A stretch of 60,606 bases of DNA from an uncultured Gemmatimonadota bacterium. Lineage in GTDB: Bacteria; SM23-81; DAOVCL01. The stretch covers positions 60,069 through 120,674 of the forward strand of contig CAZVGK010000005.1 of NCBI GenBank assembly GCA_964626665.1. Direction: 5' to 3'. The notes beneath the pieces are model-generated. The model made no database searches, was not told the origin of the DNA, and worked only from the letters and a program-made list of their open reading frames with translations. The translations under genes were made by a program, and so were the position numbers. Below are positions 1-60,283 of the stretch, in pieces; within the stretch, counting starts at the first letter, position 1, and every line of letters begins with the position of its first letter.

Positions 1-466
1 TGGTTTTTCCTGTAGTTCATTTTTAATTCTACATTCTCAATTCTTAATTTCCCGCGCAGCGGGATAGCTTCAATCCTTGTTTTAATGGATGTTCCTTACT
101 CACCAGAAAGAGAATTGAGAATTATGAATTGAGAATTAAGAATTATGTTGATTGAGTTTGATGGTTTTTCCTGTAGTTCATTTTTAATTCTACATTCTCA
201 ATTCTTAATTTCCCGCTGCAAGCGGGACAGTTTCAATCCTTGTTTTAATGGATGTTCCTCACGCACCCTCCTGTTATTTCTACAACTTTCTCCGGATTCC
301 TCACGTTTCAATCCTTGTTTTAATGGATGTTCCTCACGCACAGGAAAGAAAATTGAGAATTATGAATTGAGAATTATGTGACGCTTAGCTTACTTAATGG
401 TTTTCCCTGGCAGTTCATTTTTAATTCTACATTCTTAATTCTTAATTTCCCGCTGCAAGCGGGACA
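1..466. repeat. Three copies (1-66 partial, 104-229, 342-466) of a ~125-bp element with inverted AATTGAG/AATTATG/AATTAAG heptamer arms and a terminal TCCCGC-N-GCGGGA palindrome, located between CRISPR repeats
   Basis: 1-66 is nearly identical to 162-229, and 342-466 is a diverged copy. The left arm matches the reverse complement of the right arm (AATTCTACATTCTCAATTCTTAATT). Confidence 0.9.
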
Positions 467-2067
467 GCTTCAATCCTTGTTTTAATGGATGTTCCTCACG
501 CACTTTCCCGCAAAAATCTAGGCCCCTTACTGCGTTATATGGATGTTTCAATCCTTGTTTTAATGGATGTTCCTCACGCACCTCTACCTCTTTTCATCTG
601 GTAGAGAATACCTTTGTTTCAATCCTTGTTTTAATGGATGTTCCTCACGCACCTTGTCTCTGCTCTTAGAGACCGTGTCATCCCAAATATCCGTTTCAAT
701 CCTTGTTTTAATGGATGTTCCTCACGCACATCAACATTGATGAAGGCAAGAATAGCACCTTGGGCATGTTTCAATCCTTGTTTTAATGGATGTTCCTCAC
801 GCACATCAACATTGATGAAGGCAAGAATAGCACCTTGGGCATGTTTCAATCCTTGTTTTAATGGATGTTCCTCACGCACTATTGAGAAACTGGTTATGAA
901 GTTGAAAGTTGATGGTGTTTCAATCCTTGTTTTAATGGATGTTCCTCACGCACACCTCTAAAAAACCTAACCCACAGGTCAAGGAATTTCTGTTTCAATC
1001 CTTGTTTTAATGGATGTTCCTCACGCACTTGTGGCTTTCTACGGCAAGAATAATGCTACCGATTTATGTTTCAATCCTTGTTTTAATGGATGTTCCTCAC
1101 GCACTCCCTCTCTTCCACGGGATGGGATCATATTCCTTACGAAGTGTTTCAATCCTTGTTTTAATGGATGTTCCTCACGCACCTGACGGAATCCACATTT
1201 GGTGGGCACGGCGAAACAAGGTTTCAATCCTTGTTTTAATGGATGTTCCTCACGCACTTTAAGGATGGCATTTCAGTAGGGATTACCGATGAAGTTTCAA
1301 TCCTTGTTTTAATGGATGTTCCTCACGCACCTTCACTGGGATGACATCTTGGGCCGACATTACCCAGTTTCAATCCTTGTTTTAATGGATGTTCCTCACG
1401 CACTTTATTGGGCGCACTGTGATGATTTGGCCCTAATTTAGTTTCAATCCTTGTTTTAATGGATGTTCCTCACGCACTTATTGAAAGTAAAGGGAAATAG
1501 CCTATGCTTGCTAAAGTGTTTCAATCCTTGTTTTAATGGATGTTCCTCACGCACCTCAAGCGGCCTACAACACAGTGCTTGATTGTCGGTTTCAATCCTT
1601 GTTTTAATGGATGTTCCTCACGCACCCGTGGGGGTGGGGATTCTCGGCTGCAGATTTCGTGGTTTCAATCCTTGTTTTAATGGATGTTCCTCACGCACTC
1701 TTCATCGATGAGCCCACACAAAAGACTAACCAACGTTTCAATCCTTGTTTTAATGGATGTTCCTCACGCACCACATTGCCCCCAACGAGCCAGCAGGTAA
1801 GGTTGTAGGGTTTCAATCCTTGTTTTAATGGATGTTCCTCACGCACGTCAATATGGTCAAGGATGTATTTCACCTTACAGGGTTTCAATCCTTGTTTTAA
1901 TGGATGTTCCTCACGCACCTGCGATAATAATATGCTTTTGATCTGTCCTCGAAATAGTTTCAATCCTTGTTTTAATGGATGTTCCTCACGCACAATATTA
2001 GAGCTGGAGAGACAGATAGAGGTTTTACGGGTTTCAATCCTTGTTTTAATGGATGTTCCTCACGCAC
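67..2067 (-). CRISPR. CRISPR array: 25 repeats of 37 bp (plus strand GTTTCAATCCTTGTTTTAATGGATGTTCCTCACGCAC), 22 normal spacers of 34-41 bp and two ~125-bp atypical inserts; probably continues beyond the left edge
   Basis: Repeats start at 67 (degenerate), 230, 305, 467 (GC variant), 545, 616, 693, 768, 843, 917, 992, 1068, 1146, 1221, 1294, 1367, 1441, 1518, 1589, 1662, 1735, 1810, 1882, 1957 and 2031. The minus-strand repeat ends ATTGAAAC and degenerate repeats lie at the left end, so transcription is inferred right to left. Confidence 0.98.
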
Positions 2068-2241
2068 AGCTTTTTCGCTGTAACTTCAAAAAATATAGGG
2101 ACTTGATTCACCTTTCTCAACAGGTTAAATGGCCAATTTTCTGGGTCAAATGGGCCCAAATTACCCCCCTTTTGACTTCCCTTTACATATAATCTACCAA
2201 TGTAACTGATAACAATCCAAGTAGTTAACATTTCTCTGGCT
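2068..2241 (-). promoter_or_regulatory. CRISPR leader
   Basis: AT-rich non-coding stretch between the cas4 stop and the non-degenerate end of the array. Confidence 0.75.
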
Positions 2242-2826
2242 TCAAACACAGATATTTTTGTAACAGCAGTCTATACATTTCGCTCTGTTTCTGGTCTTCT
2301 TCGGATAATATCCATTTTGCACTATTTTTAATATTTCCTCAACTACCCTCAGGGCATTATCAAAATCAGAGGATTTGAACACAACTTCCCGCAAGAGGTT
2401 ATTAGAGCGGACATAGACTAAGAATCCTTTTTCTACTGACTTCCCATAATTCTCCTGAATTAGCAGAGCCTCTAAGGTCAACTGCGTCCTATGGGTTTTG
2501 AAAACATAGGGCCTATATTCAGCGAACTTATACTCTAATGGAGCCATTGTCCCATCAGAGAGGGATAGAACCTCATCTACTATTCCTCGGATTTTATGTT
2601 TAGGACTGGAGAGGTATACAGAAATTTCCTTGTCAATACATCCAATTTTCTTTCGCACATACTCCCGGTTAACCCTCGTTTTCCTTTCATGCACCTCTCT
2701 GCCTATAAGCACCTTGTAACGCAATTCTTGGTGTTCCGGAATCATCAGCACCTGCTCAAAGTAGATAAACCTTGGGCAGAAAAGATACTCTATAACCTCA
2801 GTTGGTGTGACAGAAACATTATTCAT
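2242..2826 (-). CDS. cas4: CRISPR-associated exonuclease Cas4
   Basis: N-terminal YLFCPR, RecB-type GIVD...PLEYK motif, C-terminal CxxCCYxxxC Fe-S cysteines. Confidence 0.95.
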   Translation of the reverse strand: MNNVSVTPTEVIEYLFCPRFIYFEQVLMIPEHQELRYKVLIGREVHERKTRVNREYVRKKIGCIDKEISVYLSSPKHKIRGIVDEVLSLSDGTMAPLEYKFAEYRPYVFKTHRTQLTLEALLIQENYGKSVEKGFLVYVRSNNLLREVVFKSSDFDNALRVVEEILKIVQNGYYPKKTRNRAKCIDCCYKNICV

Positions 2827-2827
2827 A

Positions 2828-2884
2828 AGGAAAAGTGATGAGCAAGGAGCAATGAGTAATGTGCAATGAGCGAAGAGTAGTGAG
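2828..2884. repeat. Heptamer tandem repeats (GAGCAAG/GAGCAAT/GAGTAAT/GAGCGAA), downstream arm of four-helix-bundle cassette 1
   Basis: Inverted relative to 3335-3393; about 49 nt align. Confidence 0.9.
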
Positions 2885-2931
2885 TTTAGGCTAATCTAGG
2901 TTCTGGATAAACGGCTAAATTAATTCCCTTC

Positions 2932-3348
2932 TCACTCCTTGTCTTTTACACCTCCCTTCCGAGATCGAATTAAACCAGAAAGCATTCGGCTGACCTCTGC
3001 TAAGTTCCCATTGAGTACCTCAAACTTTTTCTCATCAAAATAACCAAGCCGGCGACAGATCTCAAATTGTGTATCCAACTCACTCACCGAACCTCTGGCA
3101 ATAATCCAGAACTGCATCTTCTCCTTTGATGATCTTCGGGCACATCCCTCTGCGATATTACTCGGAATGGAAACCACGGCCCTTTGTATCTGTGAAATGA
3201 GGTTGTACTGCTCACTTTTTGGAAAGGTCTTCAGTGTCTTATAGACGTTTACAACCAGATCAACACTTTTTTGCCATATCACCAACCTTCGATGTGGCCT
3301 TTCCTCTGCTATTTGCCTACCCACAATTCTTTTTCCTTCGCTCATCAC
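2932..3348 (-). CDS. Four helix bundle protein (23S rRNA-intervening sequence protein family) #1
   Basis: L-x-x-WQKS...FPKSEQYNLISQIQRAVVSIPSNIAEG...ARGSVSELDTQ signature. Confidence 0.93.
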   Translation of the reverse strand: MMSEGKRIVGRQIAEERPHRRLVIWQKSVDLVVNVYKTLKTFPKSEQYNLISQIQRAVVSIPSNIAEGCARRSSKEKMQFWIIARGSVSELDTQFEICRRLGYFDEKKFEVLNGNLAEVSRMLSGLIRSRKGGVKDKE

Positions 3349-3390
3349 TCCTTGCTCCTTGCTCCTTGCTCATTATTCTTCCCTCTTCGC

Positions 3391-3393
<3 letters not shown>
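3335..3393. repeat. Heptamer tandem repeats (CTTGCTC)n, upstream arm of cassette 1; contains the cas2 stop codon
   Basis: Minus strand reads TGAGCGAA GAGGGAA GAATAAT GAGCAAG GAGCAAG GAGCAAG GAGTGAT GAGCGAA. Confidence 0.9.
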
Positions 3394-4138
<745 letters not shown>

Positions 4139-4175
4139 CTCTTTTGTCTCTCGTTTTTCATCTCTCGTCTTTCCT
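4139..4175. repeat. Heptamer repeats (minus strand AAAGACG AGAGATG AAAAACG AGAGACA), upstream arm of cassette 2; encodes the last cas1 codons and stop
   Basis: cas1 ends AGG AAA GAC GAG AGA TGA within the repeats. Confidence 0.85.
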
Positions 4176-5138
4176 AAGAATTTCATTAGCAAGGCTGTGG
4201 CACTCAAATTGAATTGTGTCCTTTTGGAGGATGTTCCTTCTCCGATAACGCACCTTTGTCTCTAACCTTTTGTTGAAGGCCGAGATAAGGACCTTTTTCC
4301 CCTCCTGGTTTAGGGTGATCCCATTCTTAATCTGGTTGAAGTGTTGCCTTTTCACCTCCCCTTTGCTGAAGAGGTAGAAGGTCGTCTTCTCCCCTAAGAT
4401 GCGGAAGGGTTCAATCAGGTCGAAGACCAGGGATTTCTTGTTATAGTTGTCGGTGTGGAGAAAACCGATATAGGGGTCCAATCCGGCCAGAATACAGGCT
4501 TTTTCCACCATTGAATAGAGAATCCCATAGCTATAGTTCAGCATTGCATTGAAGCCATCCTTGGCTGGCCGTTTGCTGCGTCCCTTGAATTTCCAGGCCT
4601 TGGGAATGAGATACGCCAGCGCTGTAAAATAGCTGCGTCCGGCACTTCCTTCGATCCCCATCAGGTTTCCCCTCTTCTCCCCCAAAGTTCCAGAGAGCCC
4701 TTTGACCTTCTCCTGGGCCACTCTCAAGCTCTTCAGGTAGGTTTCTATCTTCTCCGCCTTGGGTTCCCGGTGGCGCTTGAGGTCTTCCAGAAGCTGAATC
4801 TGGTTTTCTATCTTTCTCTCAATCCAGTCTGTTACTAAACTTAAGCCTTCCTCAGTTTCGGAGATCTCCAGTTGTCGCCTTCTGATTCTGGTGGTGGAGC
4901 CAAGCTTGGACTGCCAGACCCTGCCATAAGGGTTGCCAAAGCGGTCCAAGAAGACCACATCTATGTTGTGGTTCATTGCCAGTTCGATGGCATCAGAGGA
5001 AAAAGCAGCATAGGTGGTCACCAGGATGGACTGAACCTTGTGGACGGAGACCAGGCTCTTCTCATCGCCTACCTTTACCTGAAAGCAATCACCAGACTTG
5101 GACAGGTAAGCCCCGGGGGTATTCAGGACAAGTTGCAT
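4158..5138 (-). CDS. cas1: CRISPR-associated integrase Cas1
   Basis: LMGIEGSAGRSYF, NAMLNYSYGILY, GLDPYIGFLH, SLVFDLIEPFR motifs. Confidence 0.97.
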   Translation of the reverse strand: MQLVLNTPGAYLSKSGDCFQVKVGDEKSLVSVHKVQSILVTTYAAFSSDAIELAMNHNIDVVFLDRFGNPYGRVWQSKLGSTTRIRRRQLEISETEEGLSLVTDWIERKIENQIQLLEDLKRHREPKAEKIETYLKSLRVAQEKVKGLSGTLGEKRGNLMGIEGSAGRSYFTALAYLIPKAWKFKGRSKRPAKDGFNAMLNYSYGILYSMVEKACILAGLDPYIGFLHTDNYNKKSLVFDLIEPFRILGEKTTFYLFSKGEVKRQHFNQIKNGITLNQEGKKVLISAFNKRLETKVRYRRRNILQKDTIQFECHSLANEILRKDER

Positions 5139-5338
5139 TTTATTCCAGGTTATGTGTTAAGAAACCACGAGATTTCACAAGATTATCACCAGATATTCAA
5201 AATAAAGAGCTTTCAAAAATTGAGTTTAACCCCCTTTTTCACCTAAGAGGAGATAAAAAACAAAAGAGAGATGAAGTAAACCGATTAGTTAAAAATCTTT
5301 AAACTTTGCGACTTTGCGGTGAATTCTTTAGTTTGGGT

Positions 5339-5890
5339 TTATTCCTTAAGCACTTTCATCAGTCTATTCCAGATGGCCATATCTTCAGCCTCATCCGATA
5401 TTTTCTGTGCCCAAGACTCCAAATACTTCCTATCTAACCTCCCCTTATGTCTTAAGGCTATCCCTTCAGCATCAATCAAATCCCTGGGGCGAGCGGGAAT
5501 TATCTTGAGTAGCAAAAGGTCTTCCTTAGAGGGGAGAAATACATCCTTATCAAAGATTTCTACCGAGACCTTTCTCTCTAAGGCGCTCCTTTCAAGTTCA
5601 GTGGAGGCAATCAAAAGGTCAAGATGAAGATCATCAAGAAAGAGTCTGAATACCCCTCTTTCCTTGGCCTCGGATAAGATCACCTTTCTATCAAAACTAA
5701 ATCCCATCTCTTCTGCTCTGGCGAGGAATGACCCCAGTTCGGGCTTCTTAATGAAGATTATAATATCAACATCCTGGGTGAATCTCGGTTCCCCAAAGAC
5801 ACCAACGGCGATTCCGCCGATAATTAAATACTCAACCTTGGCTTCCTCTATCAATTCAATGCAGCTTCTGAAATAATCCCTAAACTCCAT
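5339..5890 (-). CDS. Nucleotidyltransferase-fold protein (DUF6036/AbiEii-like)
   Basis: YLIIGGIAV...GEPRFTQDVDI motif; EDLLLLK...RPRDLID C-terminal motif. Confidence 0.8.
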   Translation of the reverse strand: MEFRDYFRSCIELIEEAKVEYLIIGGIAVGVFGEPRFTQDVDIIIFIKKPELGSFLARAEEMGFSFDRKVILSEAKERGVFRLFLDDLHLDLLIASTELERSALERKVSVEIFDKDVFLPSKEDLLLLKIIPARPRDLIDAEGIALRHKGRLDRKYLESWAQKISDEAEDMAIWNRLMKVLKE

Positions 5891-6062
5891 TCTTTGTAAA
5901 CTCCTTCTTTATTCTCCTAAATTCCCTATCCAATCCTGAATTGAGAAGAAACTCCATTATCTTTATGCCCTCTTCTATCTTCAACCTCTGCAAATGTTTT
6001 ACCCTTTCCGCCTCTAACCTCTCAAACCTGGTTTTATCCCACAAGCTAAAATCTTTTTTCAT
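5880..6062 (-). CDS. Small hypothetical protein, possible antitoxin-like partner of the nucleotidyltransferase
   Basis: 60 aa, GAGGGTG SD-like sequence, overlaps the start of the nucleotidyltransferase gene. Confidence 0.6.
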   Translation of the reverse strand: MKKDFSLWDKTRFERLEAERVKHLQRLKIEEGIKIMEFLLNSGLDREFRRIKKEFTKNGV

Positions 6063-6109
6063 CTTAACACCCTCTTTTGATTCCTTTTTCTGGAATCCGT
6101 GCTCTGGAT

Positions 6110-6160
6110 TAAAGACTGTTTAAGCCGTTCAAACAGGTAAAGCCGTTTAAACGGTTTAAG
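6110..6160. repeat. Nonamer repeats (CCGTTTAAA/CGGTTTAAG type), downstream arm of cassette 3
   Basis: Same self-complementary 9-mer family as 6609-6670. Confidence 0.8.
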
Positions 6161-6604
6161 TAGATTTTTTGGGTGGACTCTTCAACATCTCGGTTACCTC
6201 TTCTCTCATAGACTTATAGTGCTTTTTATACTTTTGGCCCTTGAATCTGCTCTTTTTCAAGTAATTGATGAAATTGTGTATGGTGATAGACAATTTCTTG
6301 AATGATTCGAGGAGCACATTGAACTCTTTTTCGGTTATCCCTGATCGTAGGCGATATGAAGTTGGCACCTGGCCTCACCATAGGAAGCTTTGGCAATGAA
6401 TAGAAACTGGATGAATTCCTGGTTTCCTCCCCGCTCAAATCCCTCAGCTATGTTGGACATAACCGAGACTGAAGCCCTTCTTATCTGGTCAACAAGGCCG
6501 AAGTCTTTGGAAAAGGCATCCTTACGGGTAAGGGAGTAAACTCTATTGGTAACTTCTCTGGCCAATTTCCAGATTTCCAAATCTTCAAAGTATTTGACAG
6601 TCAT
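6156..6604 (-). pseudogene. Four helix bundle protein #3, frameshifted at about 6337
   Basis: FEDLEIWKLAR...QIRRASVSVMSNIAEGFERGGNQEFIQFLFIAK...AYDQG stops at TAA 6335-6337; the expected continuation ITEKEF...FINYLKKS lies in the -1 frame (ORF 6156..6368). Confidence 0.85.
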
Positions 6605-6608
6605 CTCT

Positions 6609-6670
6609 TAACCGTTTAAACGGTTTAAACGGTTCAAACAGTTTAACCCGTTCAAGCGGTTTGAACGGTT
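6609..6670. repeat. Nonamer repeats (CGGTTTAAA/CGGTTCAAA type), upstream arm of cassette 3
   Basis: accgtttaaacggtttaaacggttcaaacagtttaacccgttcaagcggtttgaacggtt. Confidence 0.85.
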
Positions 6671-6925
6671 GGTTATTGGTTGATCTTTCAGAATTTCCAG
6701 AATGGATTGCTGTTCTTCTGTGAGGATGATTTCCTTTAGTTCATTTTGGCCTATGTGGCCAAATAACCTGCGGGTCGCCTCCAAAGAGCCATACTACAAA
6801 ATCCTCAGCTAATAAACTTCTTACTCCTGCCCTGGGAAAGATATTTGAAACTCGTTAGCCACCGAGAACAACTGAAATTCTAAGGTGCATTTTAAATTTT
6901 CGGTGTCATTCGGTGTTTTGTTGGA

Positions 6926-7363
6926 TTAGCTTCTCTTGAGCTGCTCCCTCAGCTCGCGGGCAAGCCTTTCGGCTTCTTTTGCACTTGGAGAGGGCCGCAT
7001 TTCCAATAGGCCATAAACGAGCTTCAACTCCTTTCCGCAGGCACCACATTTGGCAAACAGGGTCAGCCCGGCCATTTGTTTACTATCCACTTTCCCGCCG
7101 TATGCTCCAAGTAGATATTCGGTGGGGTCATCTATTTCAAGCGGTGGAGCCACTTTACCGCAGTAAGGACAGGTCAGGGCCGCCCAGGTCTCATCATCAT
7201 AGGCATGCTGAACCCCATCTTCTTCCAAGCTCATCTCGCCCAATCTTAAGGCTAAATCCCTCTTGGGAACTCCTAACTTTTTAGCCAACTTCGATAGTTC
7301 CGGCCCTGCTTCCATCTGGGCTTCCCATATCTCCTGGTCAGAATAATCATCTATCCTCTTCAT
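6926..7363 (-). CDS. Hypothetical protein with a possible N-terminal HTH and a zinc ribbon (CPYC...CGAC); start re-assigned to 7363
   Basis: TAAGGAGG SD upstream of ATG 7363; two CxxC pairs; LSKLAKKLGVPKRDLALRL is HTH-like. Confidence 0.7.
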   Translation of the reverse strand: MKRIDDYSDQEIWEAQMEAGPELSKLAKKLGVPKRDLALRLGEMSLEEDGVQHAYDDETWAALTCPYCGKVAPPLEIDDPTEYLLGAYGGKVDSKQMAGLTLFAKCGACGKELKLVYGLLEMRPSPSAKEAERLARELREQLKRS

Positions 7364-7475
7364 ACTCACAACCCTCCTTATTTTTAGCTTTTTTCCTCCC
7401 CTTTCGGCTTTGTTTTTGAGCTTTCCATCCTCACCACCGTCCCAAACCCGCGGGAGACAGATTTGACCAGATTGG

Positions 7476-9710
7476 CTAGATAAACCAAACACCTGAAGGG
7501 TTATTTTGTTTCAATCTTGCTCCAAATTGACTATCATATTCCACATCGCAAAAAAGAATGCCTTTTTCTTCTTCTTTGTTTTTGAGGACATACCAGAGAG
7601 GTAATTTAACCTCATACCATCGGCGTTCTGCTGGTTTCAATTTAAGGACCTCATCCTTAAAGCAGGTGGGAATTACAGAGGCCGTTTCGTATCTGACCTG
7701 TCGTGTGACTTCTTGTTTTTCTTCTGCTATTCGGCTGTCAAATATGGCCATTCGCTTCTTTTGACTTTTTGCATATTGGCTTATTGCCTCTTGATAACTT
7801 TCCAAATTTTCAATCGGGTATCCTTGATAGACCATTTCTGTCAAATTAATTAGGTCTTGCTCGGACATTTCCTTGGGTGCCTTATAAAATGCCTTAAAAG
7901 ATCGGTCAAGTAAATTAGGATCATTTATGGGATTATATATTTTGTTAGCTTTGTCCGAAGCCTTGAAAATGTAGACGCGACTATCCCTCTTTGGATCACG
8001 GTAACGATTTACCCGTCCAGCCCGTTGAGCAATAGCATCAGGTGGAGCACATTCCGTGAAGAGCCAATCAAAATCTATATCTAAGGATACCTCTAGTACC
8101 TGGGTAGCTACGGCAAAATGAGCCTTCTCAATCTCTTCCTCAATTGATTTTCGATCCTTCAGGATAAACCGACTATGATAGCAGATCGGCTCAAGATGAG
8201 AAAACTGCTCGGCCAGTTCCTGGCACTGCTCTACAGTGTTTACCACCACTAATACTCGCCTGCCCTCCTGAACTGCTCTTTCAATCTCATTAGTTGCTTC
8301 CCTAATCTGTCGAACCTCCACAAAATAGCGGCTGCGCTTTGCACTGAGCAAAGTTTCTTCTCGTACTACCTCGACCTCCTTCAACTCCTGTTGAAAAAGT
8401 CCTATCAGTGAGCTGGGCAAGGTAGCGCTCATAAGGAGAGATCGAGCACCTAAATGGACAAAGTGCCTGATGGATGAAACAATAAGTCCCAATGTCCAAC
8501 CATCGTAAGCGTGAATTTCATCCAATATGATCACGCTGTTGGCTGCATTTATCTCTTTAACCGCCCACCGGCCAGCATTAAAGCCTATTGTTAAGAGTTG
8601 ATCAACCGTGCCCACTGTAACAGGGTTGATAAATGATCGGTCAAAAAGGATTCCCCGACGATTTTCCCAGATATCTGCCTCATCTTCTAAAAACAGATTA
8701 GCAGTGGAATGGGTTAGGCCTACATTCCTTTTGCCAAACAAGTTACAGAGTCGCTTCCACATATTGTTAGCTGTGACCATAGTAGGCAAAAGATAGATGA
8801 TTTTTGCGCCACCCATCTGGTTAGCATTATTGATTGCCCAGAGGAGAGAAGCTTCTGTCTTGCCACTTCCTGTTGGAGCGACGGCGATCAAATGGCCCAA
8901 ATGGTCTCCTACGGTCTTTTGGAATGTTCGCAGTCCCGAAAAAGAAATCCTTCTTTCCTGGCACCGTCTCTTTAAATTTTCTACTACTGACTGAGGAGAT
9001 TCCTTTACTCGGTAATTAACTTGTGTCTTGCCCGAGCCGTGCCAGTCAGCGTAGTGCAAAATTCCCTTAAGAAGAGCATAGAGAATCCGAGTTCGCTCTA
9101 TATCTTCTTTCTCTAACAGCTTGCTAAGGGCACCATCCCAGCCAATCAGGCCTGACAATGAGCGGTAAGGGTCTTTTCTCTCTAATCCTTCTGGCAATTT
9201 GGGAAAGTTCCATTTCTCACGATGGAAGATACCCTCTGCCTCCCTTATAGCCTCCTTTAGTCCAGCAGGAATAAAATGCGGGGAATCAGCAAGACCCTCT
9301 CGCCCAAATGATCCCAGATCGGTATCCAGTGATTTATGATGTCCAACTACGGCTAAGGCCTCTAAGGGGATATTTGATAGAAAAGCTGATTGGTTTAGGA
9401 GATGCCATGCAGTAGCAGCAAAGACAAAAGAAGCCAATTCATGCCGATAGTTTCTTCGGAAATCAAACCTTTCGCCTTTGCGTTTTGCCTTCATCATTTG
9501 CTGAAAGGGTTCTATCATCTTGCCAATATCGTGCAAAGCAACCGTTAAAAGAGACCCTTGCAAGAATCTGTCTACAGAGAAGTTATACCTTTCCGCCAAT
9601 CTTTCAATAAGAGCCTTTTTGGCTATAACGGTCTCTTTCCAAGCAGCATATACAGCCTCAAGATGCTCATGATAGGTTTGATCTGGCTTGGCATAAAATA
9701 TCGCACTCAC
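7476..9710 (-). CDS. cas3: CRISPR-associated HD nuclease/helicase Cas3
   Basis: HDIGK HD domain, APTGSGKT Walker A, DEIH, SAT, QRAGRVNR motifs. Confidence 0.97.
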   Translation of the reverse strand: MSAIFYAKPDQTYHEHLEAVYAAWKETVIAKKALIERLAERYNFSVDRFLQGSLLTVALHDIGKMIEPFQQMMKAKRKGERFDFRRNYRHELASFVFAATAWHLLNQSAFLSNIPLEALAVVGHHKSLDTDLGSFGREGLADSPHFIPAGLKEAIREAEGIFHREKWNFPKLPEGLERKDPYRSLSGLIGWDGALSKLLEKEDIERTRILYALLKGILHYADWHGSGKTQVNYRVKESPQSVVENLKRRCQERRISFSGLRTFQKTVGDHLGHLIAVAPTGSGKTEASLLWAINNANQMGGAKIIYLLPTMVTANNMWKRLCNLFGKRNVGLTHSTANLFLEDEADIWENRRGILFDRSFINPVTVGTVDQLLTIGFNAGRWAVKEINAANSVIILDEIHAYDGWTLGLIVSSIRHFVHLGARSLLMSATLPSSLIGLFQQELKEVEVVREETLLSAKRSRYFVEVRQIREATNEIERAVQEGRRVLVVVNTVEQCQELAEQFSHLEPICYHSRFILKDRKSIEEEIEKAHFAVATQVLEVSLDIDFDWLFTECAPPDAIAQRAGRVNRYRDPKRDSRVYIFKASDKANKIYNPINDPNLLDRSFKAFYKAPKEMSEQDLINLTEMVYQGYPIENLESYQEAISQYAKSQKKRMAIFDSRIAEEKQEVTRQVRYETASVIPTCFKDEVLKLKPAERRWYEVKLPLWYVLKNKEEEKGILFCDVEYDSQFGARLKQNNPSGVWFI

Positions 9711-10420
9711 AGCAACACCATTGCCTCGCCCCCAATCTGAAAGGCAGATATTGGTTCCTTTAACCGTATGGGCGAGCCAACAAAGGTAAAATGCTCCCTT
9801 CGACTCACCCGCCTTTCCTTACCGATGAAACTAAAGGATGTTGGAAGCAGAAAAACTTGTGGGGCACGAATTGTCTCTGTAATTGGAACCTCTTTCAAAT
9901 CCAGTATTGGTTCATAGACACCCGTGTGATCGCCTGGCAAAACTGTATTTTGGAATTCTGAAAGTAGAGAATCTGTGAAAACCTCTATTTGCCCAATTTT
10001 ATATATCTTTACCAGGTCATCACTGTTACCGGCGGTCAGAGCGTAACAGGGGTTCAAGAGAGCCTCTTTTACTCGATTTGCAACCACTTTATCCTCTGAG
10101 CCAATAGCCAATTTCATCTTGAAGTCGGTTAAATATTCTCGAAGTAGGACATCAGAGATTATCTCGCCCATTTTTATCTTGTGATACTTCCAGAGATCCC
10201 GAATCTGACCGCTGTGTCTGCCTACTACACCAAGACGTAAACCATTCTCTTCTCGAAACCGCATTGCATCTTCAAAGCTTAAACCAAGGGCCGCCCCAAC
10301 AAGTCCGACCAAGGTAGTGATGGGTGGAAGGGGAAAGGTCTGGTGAAATGTATGATTTTCAGGTATCCGAAATGAGGCTGTATTAGCAATTCCCTCTACG
10401 GTAAAGAGATACATAGTCAC
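9707..10420 (-). CDS. cas5: CRISPR-associated protein Cas5
   Basis: TASFRIP...TFPLPPITTLVGLVGAALG N-terminal motif. Confidence 0.93.
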   Translation of the reverse strand: MTMYLFTVEGIANTASFRIPENHTFHQTFPLPPITTLVGLVGAALGLSFEDAMRFREENGLRLGVVGRHSGQIRDLWKYHKIKMGEIISDVLLREYLTDFKMKLAIGSEDKVVANRVKEALLNPCYALTAGNSDDLVKIYKIGQIEVFTDSLLSEFQNTVLPGDHTGVYEPILDLKEVPITETIRAPQVFLLPTSFSFIGKERRVSRREHFTFVGSPIRLKEPISAFQIGGEAMVLL

Positions 10421-10421
10421 C

Positions 10422-11309
10422 TCACTTGTAGCATTGGTCTACCCATTCCTGCATTCTCCTAAAGGCTTCACCTATGGTGACTGTATTTTCAGGTAGAACA
10501 GTAAAGAGTCCCTTTCTTGCCCCGAAGACATATGCCCTGATTTCGTCTGCAAAATCGGCTAAGGTTTCCGTAAGCAAATCAACATTTACACCCCCGTTAA
10601 CAGGCACCACGGACTCCAAGAAAATAGGGTTTTTTACACTGAGCAAAGCCACGGCCACAAACTTAGGGGAAATGTCTGCTAAGAAACGAGTTTGTCTGCC
10701 AGATGACCAAAGATTTTTGAAGGCTGAGAGGAGAGCGTTGACCCGTTTAGCTTTCTCCTCGGCTCTCAACCCATTTTTAAATCCATCGCCACAACCGACC
10801 CGGTCAAGCTCAATGAGTATTGTGCCCCGATAAGTGCCAGCGTGTATCTCAGTCTCAAAGATGTTAGGGTCACCACCGGCAGCAACACCCATATAATTGG
10901 TGCCAAAGTCCAAGTCTCCTTCATACTTATCCACTACTGAGATAAGCGGAGAAACCCTTATAGGTGATGTGCGTGTAATCGCTGCTCCCTTACCTACTCC
11001 CTTTCCTTTTTCTATGCCCATAAAGCCAAAGAGGTCATCATCGATGAATTTCTCAGGCTCCTGTTGTGTAGTTGCAGCCCCTTTGACAATTTGAGCGGCT
11101 ACTCCTTCTGATAACTCCCAGCCAAGGTTAGGTAGTTGGTCACGGAGCGCCCGCCGTACCGCTTGAGATGAAACATATGGATACTGCTCTGTCCCTCGAC
11201 TTAGTTTCTTGATACTTGAGATGTTCTCAGCCTCTTTATCAGAACCATTGAGGCTGGCAAAGGAGACAGGCGTAAGGTAGGTGATGGTTAAAGCTTTCGC
11301 GTCTTTCAT
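10422..11309 (-). CDS. cas7: Type I-B Cas7 (Cst2/DevR family)
   Basis: PYVSSQAVRRALR, DDDLFGFM, TRTSPIRVS, PNIFETEIH, ELDRVG motifs. Confidence 0.93.
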   Translation of the reverse strand: MKDAKALTITYLTPVSFASLNGSDKEAENISSIKKLSRGTEQYPYVSSQAVRRALRDQLPNLGWELSEGVAAQIVKGAATTQQEPEKFIDDDLFGFMGIEKGKGVGKGAAITRTSPIRVSPLISVVDKYEGDLDFGTNYMGVAAGGDPNIFETEIHAGTYRGTILIELDRVGCGDGFKNGLRAEEKAKRVNALLSAFKNLWSSGRQTRFLADISPKFVAVALLSVKNPIFLESVVPVNGGVNVDLLTETLADFADEIRAYVFGARKGLFTVLPENTVTIGEAFRRMQEWVDQCYK

Positions 11310-11620
11310 TTGTTTTCTCCTCCTTTAGTGGCGGCATTAAAACTATTGAGAGCCGCAATCATACAGAATTGTTTGAACTCTACGAAGTTGCTGTCAGTAA
11401 GTGCTCCCTCGTAAAGTTCTTTTGGCACAGTGAAGTCAGATCCGAGCTTAAACTGAAGCCGATTCAACTGCTCTAGGAAGTCTGTCTTCTTTCTTGCTTT
11501 TCGCAAGGCAAAAAGGTCTCCCTTTTTCCCACTCGTTCTACCTTGTTTATCTTTCTTGCCCACTGCCATGCCAACCCGTCGGCCTAAAGTCACAGCCACT
11601 TCTTGGTCTTCTTTGGTCAT
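11306..11620 (-). CDS. cas11: Putative internally translated small subunit Cas11 (104 aa, in frame within cas8)
   Basis: GAGGGGGGG SD-like run immediately before the in-frame ATG (RRGGA-MTKEDQE...). Confidence 0.6.
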   Translation of the reverse strand: MTKEDQEVAVTLGRRVGMAVGKKDKQGRTSGKKGDLFALRKARKKTDFLEQLNRLQFKLGSDFTVPKELYEGALTDSNFVEFKQFCMIAALNSFNAATKGGENK

Positions 11621-13021
11621 AGCCCCCCCTCTTCTTGTTATTTTCTCATAAAGAACGAGAAAGTTTAATAGCGGTTTGAAATAATCCAATTCTGCCCGAA
11701 ATACATGCATCTCCACGAGATCAAGGATGGTTTGTTTCTTTAAGATGCGTTCACAGATACGATTGCGAAGAAGTGTTTTGTTCTCGTTCTTTTTCTGAGA
11801 AAAGTCAACCAATAGTCGCATCACTTCCCGAATATTAATCTTCTCTTGTTTCAATTCGTTCATCAGCCGAAAGAAGTAAACAGTATCCCGAAAGGGCCAA
11901 ACCCTCTTCACCATTGTAGTTTGGCCTTTTGATTCTGCATCCAAGACAATAAACTCTAATGGCGATTTGTTAATGGTGAGGTCGAGCATTCTTTCCCAAT
12001 CCAGAACAGCGGTTGTTTCCTCTTTTTCTTCCTTTTGTTGAAGGAGAACCTTTTTGTAGAGCGTGAAGAGAAAGGCAAAGGTAACTTCAAATGATCGCTG
12101 AAAATATCCACCTAAAGGATGCTCAAAATTGCGAAATAGATTAGGATCAAGTTGCTCCGCCTCATGTAACGGTTTAAACACATCCAACATCTTCTCCAAA
12201 GAAACGGAATAAGGGAGGAAAATATACAAATGGTTTCCTTGTTGTAGATAGAAACCGTTAACAGGCACAAACTTTCCCAACAGAGAACACTTCCAACAAA
12301 CTTTTTCAGGGTCTCCTCCTTGTGGATTAAAAGAGAGAACACCACTCGTGCCAGTGATAAGTGGGAAGATGGTCTGGTTGGCATCTTCCAGGTTGGAAGC
12401 TTTCTCTCCGCACAGATAACATATTCCCTTTGGCTTCCCAGATTTGGTCTGTATTTTGATCTTGGGTCTAACAGCATTTGGGCCGTCTTTTAACAATCCA
12501 GCGGTTGTTACATCTAAACCATTCTTGTCTAAGAAAGAATCCAGTCTTTCTTGAAGATAGACATATGGAGTAGGCAATATTCCACGGGCCTTTCTCACCT
12601 TTTTGCCATCTATCTTGATTTCTCGTTTCTCTTTTCTTTCCCACTTGATGGATGAAGCCGTAGGTCGGGGGGCTTTGTCATATATTAATGCAGCGATACC
12701 GACTGCTTTCCGTTTGGGAAAAGCGACAAATTTGTCTTCTTGACTATCATAATAAAAATTATATCCAGAGGTATTATCTCGCTGTTTTTTGGTAGATAAA
12801 TTATAGTAACGTTCTGTCATCAGATTATAAGCGGATTCAAGCACTATCTGGATTGTTTTCTCTGATCCAGTTAGTTTCAAGCCTTCATCTGTAATAGCAA
12901 TTTTTACTTCATTATTGTTTACTTCCCTCAAAAATTGTATTAGTCCAACTAATCCTGAATCCAGCCAGAAATGCCCCAATTTGGGGAAAACTATCTCGAT
13001 AGAATCATTTACTCGATTCAA
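11306..13021 (-). CDS. cas8: Type I large subunit Cas8 (Cas8b1/Cst1-like, two CxxC)
   Basis: Lies between cas6 and cas7; N-terminal HFWLDSGLVG; CYLC and CWKC zinc ligands; helical C-terminal domain. Confidence 0.82.
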   Translation of the reverse strand: MNRVNDSIEIVFPKLGHFWLDSGLVGLIQFLREVNNNEVKIAITDEGLKLTGSEKTIQIVLESAYNLMTERYYNLSTKKQRDNTSGYNFYYDSQEDKFVAFPKRKAVGIAALIYDKAPRPTASSIKWERKEKREIKIDGKKVRKARGILPTPYVYLQERLDSFLDKNGLDVTTAGLLKDGPNAVRPKIKIQTKSGKPKGICYLCGEKASNLEDANQTIFPLITGTSGVLSFNPQGGDPEKVCWKCSLLGKFVPVNGFYLQQGNHLYIFLPYSVSLEKMLDVFKPLHEAEQLDPNLFRNFEHPLGGYFQRSFEVTFAFLFTLYKKVLLQQKEEKEETTAVLDWERMLDLTINKSPLEFIVLDAESKGQTTMVKRVWPFRDTVYFFRLMNELKQEKINIREVMRLLVDFSQKKNENKTLLRNRICERILKKQTILDLVEMHVFRAELDYFKPLLNFLVLYEKITRRGGAMTKEDQEVAVTLGRRVGMAVGKKDKQGRTSGKKGDLFALRKARKKTDFLEQLNRLQFKLGSDFTVPKELYEGALTDSNFVEFKQFCMIAALNSFNAATKGGENK

Positions 13022-13869
13022 AACACCTCCTCCTTCTTGATGGCGGTCCCAAAACCCCTGGCTGCAGACTTGCCAATGCCCCAGATACTTGGAAGGGCAA
13101 AGTTAACCTCAAACTCACCTTCAAAGCCCAACATTTTCAATCCCTGGTTTTGGTGTCCTGGTTTGATGGTAAACTCTCCGGCTAATTCCAGCTTCAGAGA
13201 TACCTGCAGGCGATCAGGCACAACGTAGTTGACTGCTTTAGAGAGAGAAAGCAAATTGCCAATCAGTATTTTGCATAATAGGGCATCCACTTTGCTTTGC
13301 TCTCTCTGTATCGTTTGAAACTCTCGGTAATTCTCGCTATTAAGTGGCAACCAGGGGGTTACAAAGCGGTATTGAATTGGTTTCTCTGTTATCCCAAAAG
13401 CTATTCTGTCTCGAATAAATTGGTGGTCGATTATTCGAATGTGCTGATGATGGATATACACCTCACTTGGGAGCTTCATAGCCAACAAGATAAACGCTCC
13501 TTCTTTCAAACCAGTAATCCATCCTGCACCGTTTAGGACCTTATATTGAATCAGGGGGTGTTGATAAACCAGGCCATTGGGAAGGTGATGATGAAACTCT
13601 GGGCGATTCCGATATTCGTGGCCAAAGAAACCCCGCAGTCGTCGAGCATCATCAAATACAAGCGGTTTTTCCATCTCCAATTTTATACTCACATTTTCCA
13701 ATATGTGTTTATCCGTTCCATAAATCCGCATCTTGATCACATCGTCTTCTGCCAGCCACAAAGCTATCCTCTTATATTCCACCTTTAACTCTGCCAACTT
13801 CCCCTCCAGAGCTGGAAGGTTCTTTTGAGGAACCCCTATTGCACCTGTACCGATATGCTTTCCATTCAA
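13018..13869 (-). CDS. cas6: CRISPR-associated endoribonuclease Cas6 (start uncertain)
   Basis: LRGFFG...FHHH...YQHPLIQYK, YRFVTPWLPLN, C-terminal G-loop GIGKSAARGFG. Confidence 0.9.
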   Translation of the reverse strand: MNGKHIGTGAIGVPQKNLPALEGKLAELKVEYKRIALWLAEDDVIKMRIYGTDKHILENVSIKLEMEKPLVFDDARRLRGFFGHEYRNRPEFHHHLPNGLVYQHPLIQYKVLNGAGWITGLKEGAFILLAMKLPSEVYIHHQHIRIIDHQFIRDRIAFGITEKPIQYRFVTPWLPLNSENYREFQTIQREQSKVDALLCKILIGNLLSLSKAVNYVVPDRLQVSLKLELAGEFTIKPGHQNQGLKMLGFEGEFEVNFALPSIWGIGKSAARGFGTAIKKEEVF

Positions 13870-41479: not shown

Positions 41480-42145
41480 TAGGCATTGAACGCCGAAAAT
41501 CACTGAAACGATGAGAAATCCAGAGAGAGGATTTCACTGATGGGGGAAAAACTCCTATCGTAGATCGTCGCTGGTCATCCACCGCGGTAGGGGCTTGATT
41601 TATCAAGCCCGTTCGGGTCGCATAAATGCGACCCCTACATTTCTACCCGGCTTTAGCCGGGGTCGATAGGGCTTTAGCCCGTTTGGAGTGCTGTGACTCC
41701 TGTCACAGCTTACGTCAACAGGAGTTACCACACTCCATAGTGGCCCTAAAGGGGCCCAACCAACACTAAAGTGCGGTAGAATATTTTCTCATCTCCGTCA
41801 GGGCAGGAGTCCTACCAGCACAGAATCCTGAGGATTTGCGTTAATCTGTGTCCCATAGAGTCCGCCCGCAGGGCGTTAAGTTTGGATAATCATTCACAAT
41901 ACGACTGAGCGGTCAGATGCCCTCATCTGACCGTCCCCTCGACGAGCCGTTAAGTGCACTCACCTGCGGGCAAAAGGGAAGGGTGGCAGAATGGGGTTTC
42001 TGCCACCTCGCTTTTGAGCATAAATTTCATTTTTAACTCTTAATTCTCAATTCATGATTGCTTTTCCCTGTGTCATTCCGTGAATTTCCGTGGTAAACTT
42101 ATTTATTCGTGTAGATTCGTTTATTCGTGTCATTCGTGTTCTGTC
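41480..42145. repeat. Long intergenic mosaic of REP-like palindromes and heptamer/nonamer repeats
   Basis: GTAGGGGCTTGATTTATCAAGCCC, GGGTCGCATAAATGCGACCC, GGTGGCAGAA-TTCTGCCACC; heptamer arm at about 42025-42055 of the same family as the CRISPR inserts. Confidence 0.75.
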
Positions 42146-59624: not shown

Positions 59625-60283
59625 CCCTTTGGCCCTTTACAGGCTTTTACACAGAGGCCACAGATATATTGTCCCACATAACCAAATTTGCGGAATTGCC
59701 TTAGTTTCTCAAAGCATTTTATGTGGTCGAAATCCTCTTGGTTTTCCTTTATGGCGCCCACGGGACAGGTTGAGAGACAATCCCGGCAACTTCCACAACT
59801 TCCCGCGGAGGGGCTATCAGGGGGAAGGGGCATATCGGTGAGGATGGTCACCAGTCTCACCCTGGCCCCGTATTGGGGTGTTACCAGAAGGTTGCTTCTT
59901 CCTATCCAGCCCAATCCCGCCCTTTGGGCCACCTTCTTGTGGGAGAGATGCCCCAATTGCCGTTCCCAATCTATCGTTTGGGAAGCGGGGATGGGGATGG
60001 TCCTCCAACCCTCATTCTGGATATGGGAGGAGAGGATTAAGGCTAAACGATCCAAAAAGTAGTTTGCCTGTTTGTAATGGTGATAATAAAGCAAGGTAGG
60101 CCTATCCTCAAGCTCTTCAATTATGGGATCGGACAGTCTGAAGGCCAAGGAGATGGCCAAGGGGAAGAGCCCCCTTGATGGAAGGTAAAAATCCTTTCTC
60201 AGAGGGGTTATATCGGCCACCCCGAATAGGGATGCCCCATTGTCCATCGCCAGATCCTTAAGTCTCTGGTAGTTTGTCTTCAT
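59621..60283 (-). CDS. Epoxyqueuosine reductase/reductive dehalogenase-like 4Fe-4S protein
   Basis: SHKKVAQRAGLGWIGRSNLLVTPQYGARVRL, CGSCRDCLSTCP, CGLCVKAC. Confidence 0.8.
   Translation of the reverse strand: MKTNYQRLKDLAMDNGASLFGVADITPLRKDFYLPSRGLFPLAISLAFRLSDPIIEELEDRPTLLYYHHYKQANYFLDRLALILSSHIQNEGWRTIPIPASQTIDWERQLGHLSHKKVAQRAGLGWIGRSNLLVTPQYGARVRLVTILTDMPLPPDSPSAGSCGSCRDCLSTCPVGAIKENQEDFDHIKCFEKLRQFRKFGYVGQYICGLCVKACKGPKG

Follow-up and report, generated by a model that had tools for sequence, protein, structure and literature searches.

What occupies the overlong spacer slots at the trailer end of a CRISPR array (an array of short palindromic repeats, clustered and regularly interspaced), and how did it get there? 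The question is raised by a 60,606-nt stretch of DNA (the window) from an uncultured Gemmatimonadota bacterium, corresponding to positions 60,069 to 120,674 of contig CAZVGK010000005.1 (C5) in a source genome of 3.17 Mb (G000). At the left end of the window, hairpin-forming units of about 125 bp fill slots between the repeats of a type I-B array. We found that these units are homologous to a neighbouring gene-bearing cassette of the kind known from intervening sequences (IVSs) in 23S ribosomal RNA (rRNA) genes. The feature is real and unusual: a family of IVS-type cassettes resides at a CRISPR array's trailer and has multiplied inside it. The units are most likely passengers of the array, copied together with CRISPR repeats, and not spacers acquired by Cas1-Cas2 or captured from viruses. 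Coordinates refer to the window unless they carry the name of a contig or another locus.

Two complete empty units and one partial unit are present in the window, all on the minus strand. Unit E2 (104-229, 126 bp) contains a GC hairpin (211-227), a 5' heptamer arm, a remnant of the start and end of an open reading frame (ORF), a 3' heptamer arm and a pyrimidine tail. Unit E1 (342-466, 125 bp) has the same hairpin (448-464) and arms around a unique centre of ~25 nt, which matched nothing in any sequence compared. The partial unit (1-66) is a right-hand part comprising an arm and the GC hairpin (50-64), and its positions 1-55 are identical to 162-216. A sequence-only reading of this DNA had already delimited the three intervals and the 38-bp spacer at 267-304, and had described the long intervals as homologous to each other and alike in layout. 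Its lengths and coordinates were correct, with repeats bracketing the units exactly; 110 of 129 aligned columns (85%) are identical between E1 and E2; and the layout holds on the transcribed strand, where repeat, GC hairpin, arm, a centre of ~30 nt, complementary arm, pyrimidine tail and repeat follow one another. On that strand, 2 nt separate the repeat from a 7-bp GC hairpin (UCCCGCU/AGCGGGA), the two inverted arms carry about five AATTNAG-type heptamers each, and the pyrimidine-rich tail measures 9-16 nt. Predicted fold energies were -32.3 kcal/mol for one full unit (z -6.3) and -27.9 kcal/mol for the other (z -2.7); for neither unit did any of 200 shuffles fold as well. The consensus structure over five copies is an imperfect, AU-rich stem of ~26 bp with one compensatory pair.

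The surrounding array is a type I-B CRISPR, both in its repeat family and in the subtype of the adjacent cas genes. The 37-nt repeat occurs 25 times at 67-2067, and all 25 copies matched Rfam family CRISPR-DR7 on the minus strand (window 1-2400). Genome-wide, 28 copies with up to six substitutions were found, all within C5:59483-62135 and none elsewhere in the 3.17 Mb. The repeats at 230-266 and 305-341 (minus strand, like the two that follow) are canonical, that at 467-503 has one substitution (3' handle GAAGC, not GAAAC), and that at 67-103 is a variant with three substitutions (GCTTCAAT...TTACTCAC on the plus strand; CRISPR-DR7, 39.3 bits) that was co-amplified with the element. The remaining array (504-2067, minus strand) holds 21 ordinary spacers of 34-41 nt and is followed by a leader (2068-2241, minus strand), conserved in another genome of the same genus (G001), with a promoter-like site TTGAGA-17-TATATT (2120 to 2092). 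Next to it lies the cas operon (2242-13869, minus strand), comprising cas6b, a cas8b-like gene, cas7, cas5, cas3, cas1, cas2 and cas4; Pfam matches were obtained for Cas6b, Cas7 (DevR/Csa2), Cas5, Cas3, Cas1, Cas2 and Cas4, and the large subunit gave a weak match only. With the leader and the minus-strand cas genes on its right, the array is read from right to left, and window position 1 is its trailer end.

Within this array, the empty units are not spacers. They are 124-138 bp long, compared with 34-41 nt for all 22 ordinary spacers, including the 38-nt spacer at 267-304 (minus strand) that is flanked on both sides by element-filled slots. Rather than being unique foreign sequences, the units are 85-98% alike and homologous to a neighbouring chromosomal cassette. 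Exact matches in a viral collection numbered 0 for the unit centre and 0 for hairpin plus arm, a weak test. A permissive Rfam search of window 1-2400 returned nothing for the units, the best match being noise (MIR8643, E 0.99).

The homologous cassette lies left of the window, beyond the further units described below. It has the same hairpin and arms, with a 116-aa ORF between them (C5:59073-59423, minus strand) that matches PF05635 (E 4.4e-21), the 23S-rRNA-IVS or S23p family of four-helix-bundle proteins. At its left end, which comprises the hairpin and 5' arm, the unit agrees with this cassette in 55 of 56 nt, and at its right end, with the ORF end and 3' arm, in 43 of 46 nt; ~20 nt in its middle resemble the start of the cassette ORF (15 of 22). 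The ends of five aligned units fall on the ends of the cassette. The matches at both cassette ends support the earlier suggestion that the units are cargo-less versions of four-helix-bundle cassettes.

The start of the window directly follows a 100-N assembly gap that lies inside a tandem block of such units. Copy number is therefore not fixed by this assembly, a point in favour of regarding the units as an artefact of a repeat-rich region. Extending the contig leftwards, a check proposed in the sequence-only reading, revealed further units left of the window and the gap. A 161-bp unit, consisting of the variant repeat with its three substitutions and a 124-bp element, continues there on the minus strand at C5:59658-59818 and, cut by the gap, at C5:59819-59968, with the variant repeat again at C5:59658 and 59819; one further left-hand copy measures 138 bp and has two extra heptamers. 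An ungapped public metagenome contig of nearly the same sequence (L012) contains four E2-type units (138, 124, 124 and 126 bp), a 38-nt spacer and E1. The gap is flanked by identical 55-nt stretches, so that four copies would also fit the gapped assembly. In the Logan unitigs of four salt-marsh metagenome runs, an identical 153-nt unitig covered window 314-466 in all four at a depth of 115-187, and the inner unitigs of E2 type reached 493-820, which is 3.7-4.3 times the E1 unitig in each run; depth is a rough copy measure, used here only as agreement with L012. The units are not an assembly artefact. Such an explanation is scarcely credible against repeat-to-element junctions spanned by identical unitigs in 4/4 runs, the same order in L012 and a junction conserved in relatives.

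How, then, did the units arise? Probably, a cassette copy lost its ORF, and the repeat plus the emptied cassette was then multiplied via recombination or slippage between CRISPR repeats. In this genus, a PF05635 cassette headed by the 7-bp GC hairpin is placed directly behind the trailer-most repeat. In the G000 lineage, one copy would have lost its ORF and kept the hairpin, both arms, ~20 nt of the ORF start and ~13 nt of the ORF end; an AAAATCA motif near both ORF ends could mediate such a deletion. The 161-bp unit would then have been multiplied in tandem between its flanking repeats, with about four E2-type copies and the older, diverged E1 as the outcome. Amplification with CRISPR repeats had been offered as one option in the sequence-only reading, and it is borne out by the identity of C5:59658-59818 and 59819-59968 over 150/150 nt, the three diagnostic repeat substitutions included. 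The variant repeat was copied together with the element, which points to unit duplication. Repeat-mediated duplication does happen in this array, since an ordinary repeat-spacer unit is duplicated exactly (693-767 = 768-842; spacer ATCAACATTG..., 730-767 = 805-842).

Several observations weigh against this course of events. E1 stands apart from the E2 block, behind an ordinary spacer, and its centre is unmatched, so that simple tandem duplication needs extra steps. E1 requires an older or a separate event; this is the main weakness of the proposal and keeps site-specific insertion alive. We infer the path of ORF deletion from the alignment and from the short AAAATCA motif. The way in which repeat and hairpin meet never varies except in a 2-nt linker, and site-specific insertion would look alike. 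Extra joints (153 to 408, and 447 back to 414) were present at single-copy depth in 4/4 metagenome runs, and further variant units may exist. Finally, the hairpin stem is kept across genomes despite changes in loop and stem length. Together with the purifying selection on the neighbouring gene, this makes the whole module more than junk, and a function might extend to the empty units.

The features of E1 and of the junction would be accounted for if a small, non-autonomous hairpin, similar to a miniature inverted-repeat transposable element (MITE), inserted site-specifically beside the 3' end of the repeat, each unit being an independent insertion. Other dispersed, ORF-less heptamer hairpin families in G000 also favour this explanation, as does the cas2/cas4 interval, which holds a cassette in G000 and a heptamer tract of ~35 nt in G001. 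Against it, the GC-hairpin form was found nowhere else in the genome: the motif TCCCGC-N3-6-GCGGGA has eight matches, seven of them in C5:58995-60532 and each beside a repeat or repeat remnant. The viral collection gave no exact match, only two of 17 metagenome matches carry the hairpin element (both from this lineage), and the variant repeat was copied along with the element. The heptamer arms do provide terminal inverted repeats, but neither dispersed copies nor target-site duplications were seen, the flanks being CRISPR repeats, and no transposase was found. Independent insertion is thus distinctly unlikely, and the mobile hairpin parasitising CRISPR repeats that the sequence-only reading had considered is not needed, given the confinement of the hairpin form to this locus and relatives that carry only the terminal, gene-bearing cassette.

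Heptamers of the AATTNAG type are common in G000, whose contigs hold 135 scattered period-7 tracts belonging to several families. The supposed half-copy of the element at 42025-42055 is one of these tracts, not half of the element, and is attached to a different dispersed repeat: at 42020-42100 and at least 15 other loci in G000, AATTNAG-type tracts are joined to the dispersed motif CCACGGAAATTCACGGAA..., and a second class of such tracts is joined to GCGAAGCTTCG. In addition, dispersed ORF-less hairpins of ~100-130 nt with CAATTAG/CAATGAT-type arms and a conserved loop were found at four loci (C1:22511-22616, C12:51914-52011, C2:119818-119921 and C62:3157-3256); this family looks MITE-like.

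Does the arrangement extend beyond one genome? Window 67-503 was searched in 40 other genomes, and the arm-hairpin-repeat junction was found only in two genomes of the same genus (G001 and G002, with loci L009 and L010, respectively). In G001, the conserved leader is followed by one repeat, a hairpin with a shorter stem and another loop, a PF05635 cassette, a deacetylase-like gene, a degenerate repeat, and hairpin plus arm again. G002 has two tandem cassettes with the same truncated repeat and hairpin between them, a two-frame deacetylase-like gene, and then an empty-like remnant that keeps the last codons of the ORF. On metagenome contig L021, the order is cassette, hairpin, terminal repeat and then no fewer than seven repeats whose spacers are ordinary. 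Only the G000 lineage showed empty units between full repeats; none was found in G001, G002 or L021. The junction pattern occurred at 17 metagenome loci, of which 15 are ordinary arrays with related repeats and a spacer that happens to end in the pattern, and the other two belong to this lineage. For four cassette genes, synonymous divergence (dS) was 0.20-0.62 and the ratio of nonsynonymous to synonymous divergence (dN/dS) 0.04-0.22, indicating purifying selection. These values mean that the repeat-hairpin-cassette junction is old and that its gene has been maintained.

The DNA behind the trailer cassette varies. In G000, leftward of the full cassette on C5, a repeat truncated to its last 22 nt is followed by the hairpin again and by a transglutaminase-like gene (C5:57534-58979; PF01841, E 1.9e-20) that is fused behind what remains of a four-helix-bundle ORF start. 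Beyond this gene come a degenerate repeat, a degenerate empty unit (C5:57222-57345) and then a convergent neighbour gene. The corresponding gene is deacetylase-like in G001 (L009:424-1467) and G002 (L010:546-1642).

PF05635 genes are also frequent in the adjacent cas operon. Three further cassettes on the minus strand, each with its own arms, lie between cas2 and cas4 (2932-3348), cas1 and cas2 (3773-4207), and cas3 and cas1 (6335-6604). Altogether, four of the 16 PF05635 matches in G000 are located in a 7.6-kb section of this CRISPR-cas locus (Poisson P ~8e-8, post hoc). Arms of the cassette at 6335-6604 have a 9-nt period (6115-6175 and 6602-6671). The cas2/cas4 cassette is a presence/absence polymorphism, as read by eye: G001 has only the tract of ~35 nt (L009 ~2735-2800), compared with a complete cassette in G000 (2826-3391). 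Two more ORFs of the operon stand between cas3 and cas1, one of them DUF6036 nucleotidyltransferase-like (5339-5890) and the other 188 aa long with no match in Pfam (6926-7492).

Are heptamer arms a property of this locus or of the family? Arms were scored when the sequence upstream of a gene and the reverse-complemented sequence downstream of it had at least two 8-mers in common; 6-mers were too unspecific, and 8- and 9-mers were used instead. Among 14 of the 16 PF05635 genes in G000 (two at contig ends were left out), 11 had cognate inverted arms, compared with 13 of 182 non-cognate pairs. Heptamer (or 9-mer) sequences differ from gene to gene, but the two arms of any one gene match. In a set of the best 80 homologue loci from many phyla (L029-L108), 77 of which had both flanks, cognate arms were found at 69 of 77 loci versus 27% of non-cognate pairs; similar AT-rich heptamers recur in many arms, which makes this background high. 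At these loci, 50 upstream and 53 downstream flanks showed a signal at period 7, and there was none at periods 5, 6, 8 or 9. The median arm length was 32 nt, or ~4.6 heptamers, with a mode of 4-5. RNA duplex energies of cognate and non-cognate arms (-46.5 vs -33.4 kcal/mol) were supportive, though noisy. In the passages on the family in PMC4990558, a solved PF05635 member is cited as a homopentamer. One heptamer per protein subunit is a speculation that might be drawn from arms of this length.

Heptamer-arm modules seem prone to duplication. In a deltaproteobacterial metagenome-assembled genome (MAG; L074:1800-2400), the 5' arm module upstream of a PF05635 gene is amplified at least tenfold in tandem, with no CRISPR repeats, and the 3' end of the gene is duplicated together with its arm. 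A CRISPR array lay within 2.5 kb of the homologue at only one of the 80 loci (L039), and a tblastn search of these loci with the Cas proteins of the window gave no match at E 1e-4, in a test of low sensitivity. The PF05635 family is therefore not generally tied to CRISPR. At the exceptional locus, from a Thermodesulfovibrionia MAG (L039:2400-4230), an armed PF05635 cassette stands on the leader side of an array with 18 repeats, ~190 nt upstream of it. In passages of PMC3936711, by Zhang, Doak and Ye, 18 genes named 23S_rRNA_IVP are placed within cas loci of types I-B, I-E, II-A and III-B, with no mention of arrays or heptamers.

What might become of the units at the RNA level? Cas6-type enzymes cleave 8 nt before the 3' end of each repeat. 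Release by Cas6b of structured RNAs of ~160 nt with an 8-nt handle, as the sequence-only reading had suggested, is plausible because a Cas6b gene (13018-13869), intact repeats and a promoter-like site in the leader are all present. Read-through from the leader promoter would be cut by Cas6b in each repeat, yielding ~160-nt RNAs with no guide function, and the AU-rich stem of ~26 bp in a released RNA could be a substrate of RNase III, as in rRNA IVSs. An RNase III gene is present in G000. We found no excess of promoter-like sites that would give the arms a promoter of their own (7, compared with 4.6 +/- 2.7 expected from shuffles).

Alternatively, the CRISPR leader and Cas6b could serve as an expression platform, with the repeat ahead of each cassette retained to let Cas6b free defined RNAs: the four-helix-bundle mRNA, protected by its 5' hairpin, and functional non-guide RNAs of ~160 nt from the empty units, whose own role might be to regulate or titrate Cas6, Cascade or RNase III. 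Both other genomes of the genus (2/2) and L021 share the junction, where synonymous sites have diverged and the gene is under purifying selection; in G001, the leader and a single repeat lead directly to the cassette. The cassette genes lie on the CRISPR RNA (crRNA) strand, with no terminator-like site between them and the array, and the hairpin stem is preserved despite loop changes. The four PF05635 matches clustered at this locus and the 18 cas loci reported with 23S_rRNA_IVP genes (in the passages of PMC3936711 noted above) also fit a platform. However, empty units were seen only in the G000 lineage, the E2-type copies are near-identical and hence recent rather than long maintained, and loci of other taxa yielded one array in 80 and no Cas match by tblastn. 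A platform is thus unlikely.

In a broader and rather unlikely form of this idea, IVS-type cassettes would have adopted a CRISPR array, instead of 23S rRNA, as the RNA gene that hosts them, with leader and Cas6b expressing and liberating cassette RNAs and the hairpin behind the 8-nt handle acting as a 5' stabiliser. The empty units would then give rise to abundant non-guide RNAs that interact with Cas6b, Cascade or RNase III. Armed PF05635 genes, with ~5 heptamers per arm and a protein reported as pentameric, would represent a widespread, undescribed class of RNA-processed selfish or regulatory cassettes.

The hairpins might also stop transcription at the end of the array, as the sequence-only reading had proposed, or insulate it. 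The position of the units at the trailer end and their strong predicted stems with a following pyrimidine-rich tail are in keeping with this. However, what comes after the GC hairpin is AAAUUAAG instead of a run of U, further genes of this strand lie downstream, and a consensus scan found no terminator-like site in or beside the units on either strand. A terminator is very unlikely.

To which known elements do the units belong? Cognate heptamer arms at PF05635 genes have, in the literature found, a sole description, that of the Coxiella 23S rRNA IVS, which makes 23S rRNA IVSs the closest known kind. In the passages of PMC4990558 on this IVS, three tandem heptamers precede the S23p ORF, with an RNase III site at the first repeat; heptamer copy number varies, and one strain has a 176-bp deletion in the ORF. 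As in the IVSs of Leptospira, Coxiella and others, the full cassette has a PF05635 ORF with tandem heptamers directly before the start codon, an ORF that the units in the window have lost; complementary ends form a long stem, and ORF-deleted or ORF-less variants exist. Both kinds are lodged within a gene for a processed non-coding RNA and have no known transposition machinery. Unlike 23S rRNA IVSs, the cassettes here reside in a CRISPR spacer slot or array trailer and not in helix 9, 25 or 45 of 23S rRNA, and the units lie between CRISPR repeats, possess a GC hairpin in addition and have been amplified in tandem. No heptamer IVS was seen in the 23S rRNA gene of G000 itself (C22:51863-54919). 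No report was found of IVS-type or PF05635 cassettes in CRISPR spacer slots, in a literature search outside of which lie supplementary tables (e.g. those of PMC3936711).

Other comparisons are less close. The CreA RNA of CreTA (type I-B) is a non-guide RNA flanked by CRISPR repeats; in an RNA toxin-antitoxin pair of this kind, a pseudo-spacer partly complementary to a toxin promoter accompanies a small toxic RNA. Like CreTA, the units are non-spacer content between CRISPR or CRISPR-like repeats of a type I-B locus and raise the prospect of Cas6-processed RNAs with another role, but their content is structured and ~125 nt long instead of a spacer-sized pseudo-spacer, and they lie in the trailer instead of inside the cas operon; neither a toxin partner nor promoter complementarity was seen, no search aimed at them having been made. 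The units share with MITEs and repetitive extragenic palindromic doublets forming hairpins (REPINs) a length of ~125 bp, terminal inverted arms, derivation as an ORF-less form of a larger cassette and occurrence in several copies, but they are confined to one locus, lack any transposase or target-site duplication that we could find, and have their multiplication explained by CRISPR-repeat recombination. Like insertion sequences and transposons in CRISPR arrays and cas genes, the units put foreign DNA other than spacers into a CRISPR-cas locus; in contrast to these, they have no transposase and take up whole spacer slots, each bordered by intact repeats, and the upstream array is regular. Cyanobacteria have short tandem heptamer repeats (STRR) and small dispersed repeats. 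G000 resembles them in its richness in tandem heptamers of several families, but the heptamers here form cognate inverted arms around one gene family.

The element is most likely a passenger, yet its conserved gene-bearing context makes a functional link to CRISPR transcription or processing worth testing. Long "spacers" of an array can be resident hairpin cassettes multiplied by repeat recombination, which matters for spacer catalogues and for models of array evolution. Two topics that had been separate meet at this locus: the unexplained 23S rRNA IVS or S23p elements, and CRISPR, for which 23S_rRNA_IVP genes had been recorded only from positions beside cas genes. Within one genus, the cassette is firmly attached to the last CRISPR repeat, and selection acts on its gene; this provides a concrete system for asking whether CRISPR transcripts and Cas6 are employed to express non-guide cargo. 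More generally, the inverted arms at 69 of 77 PF05635 loci offer a handle on the processing or movement of a very common family of unknown function.

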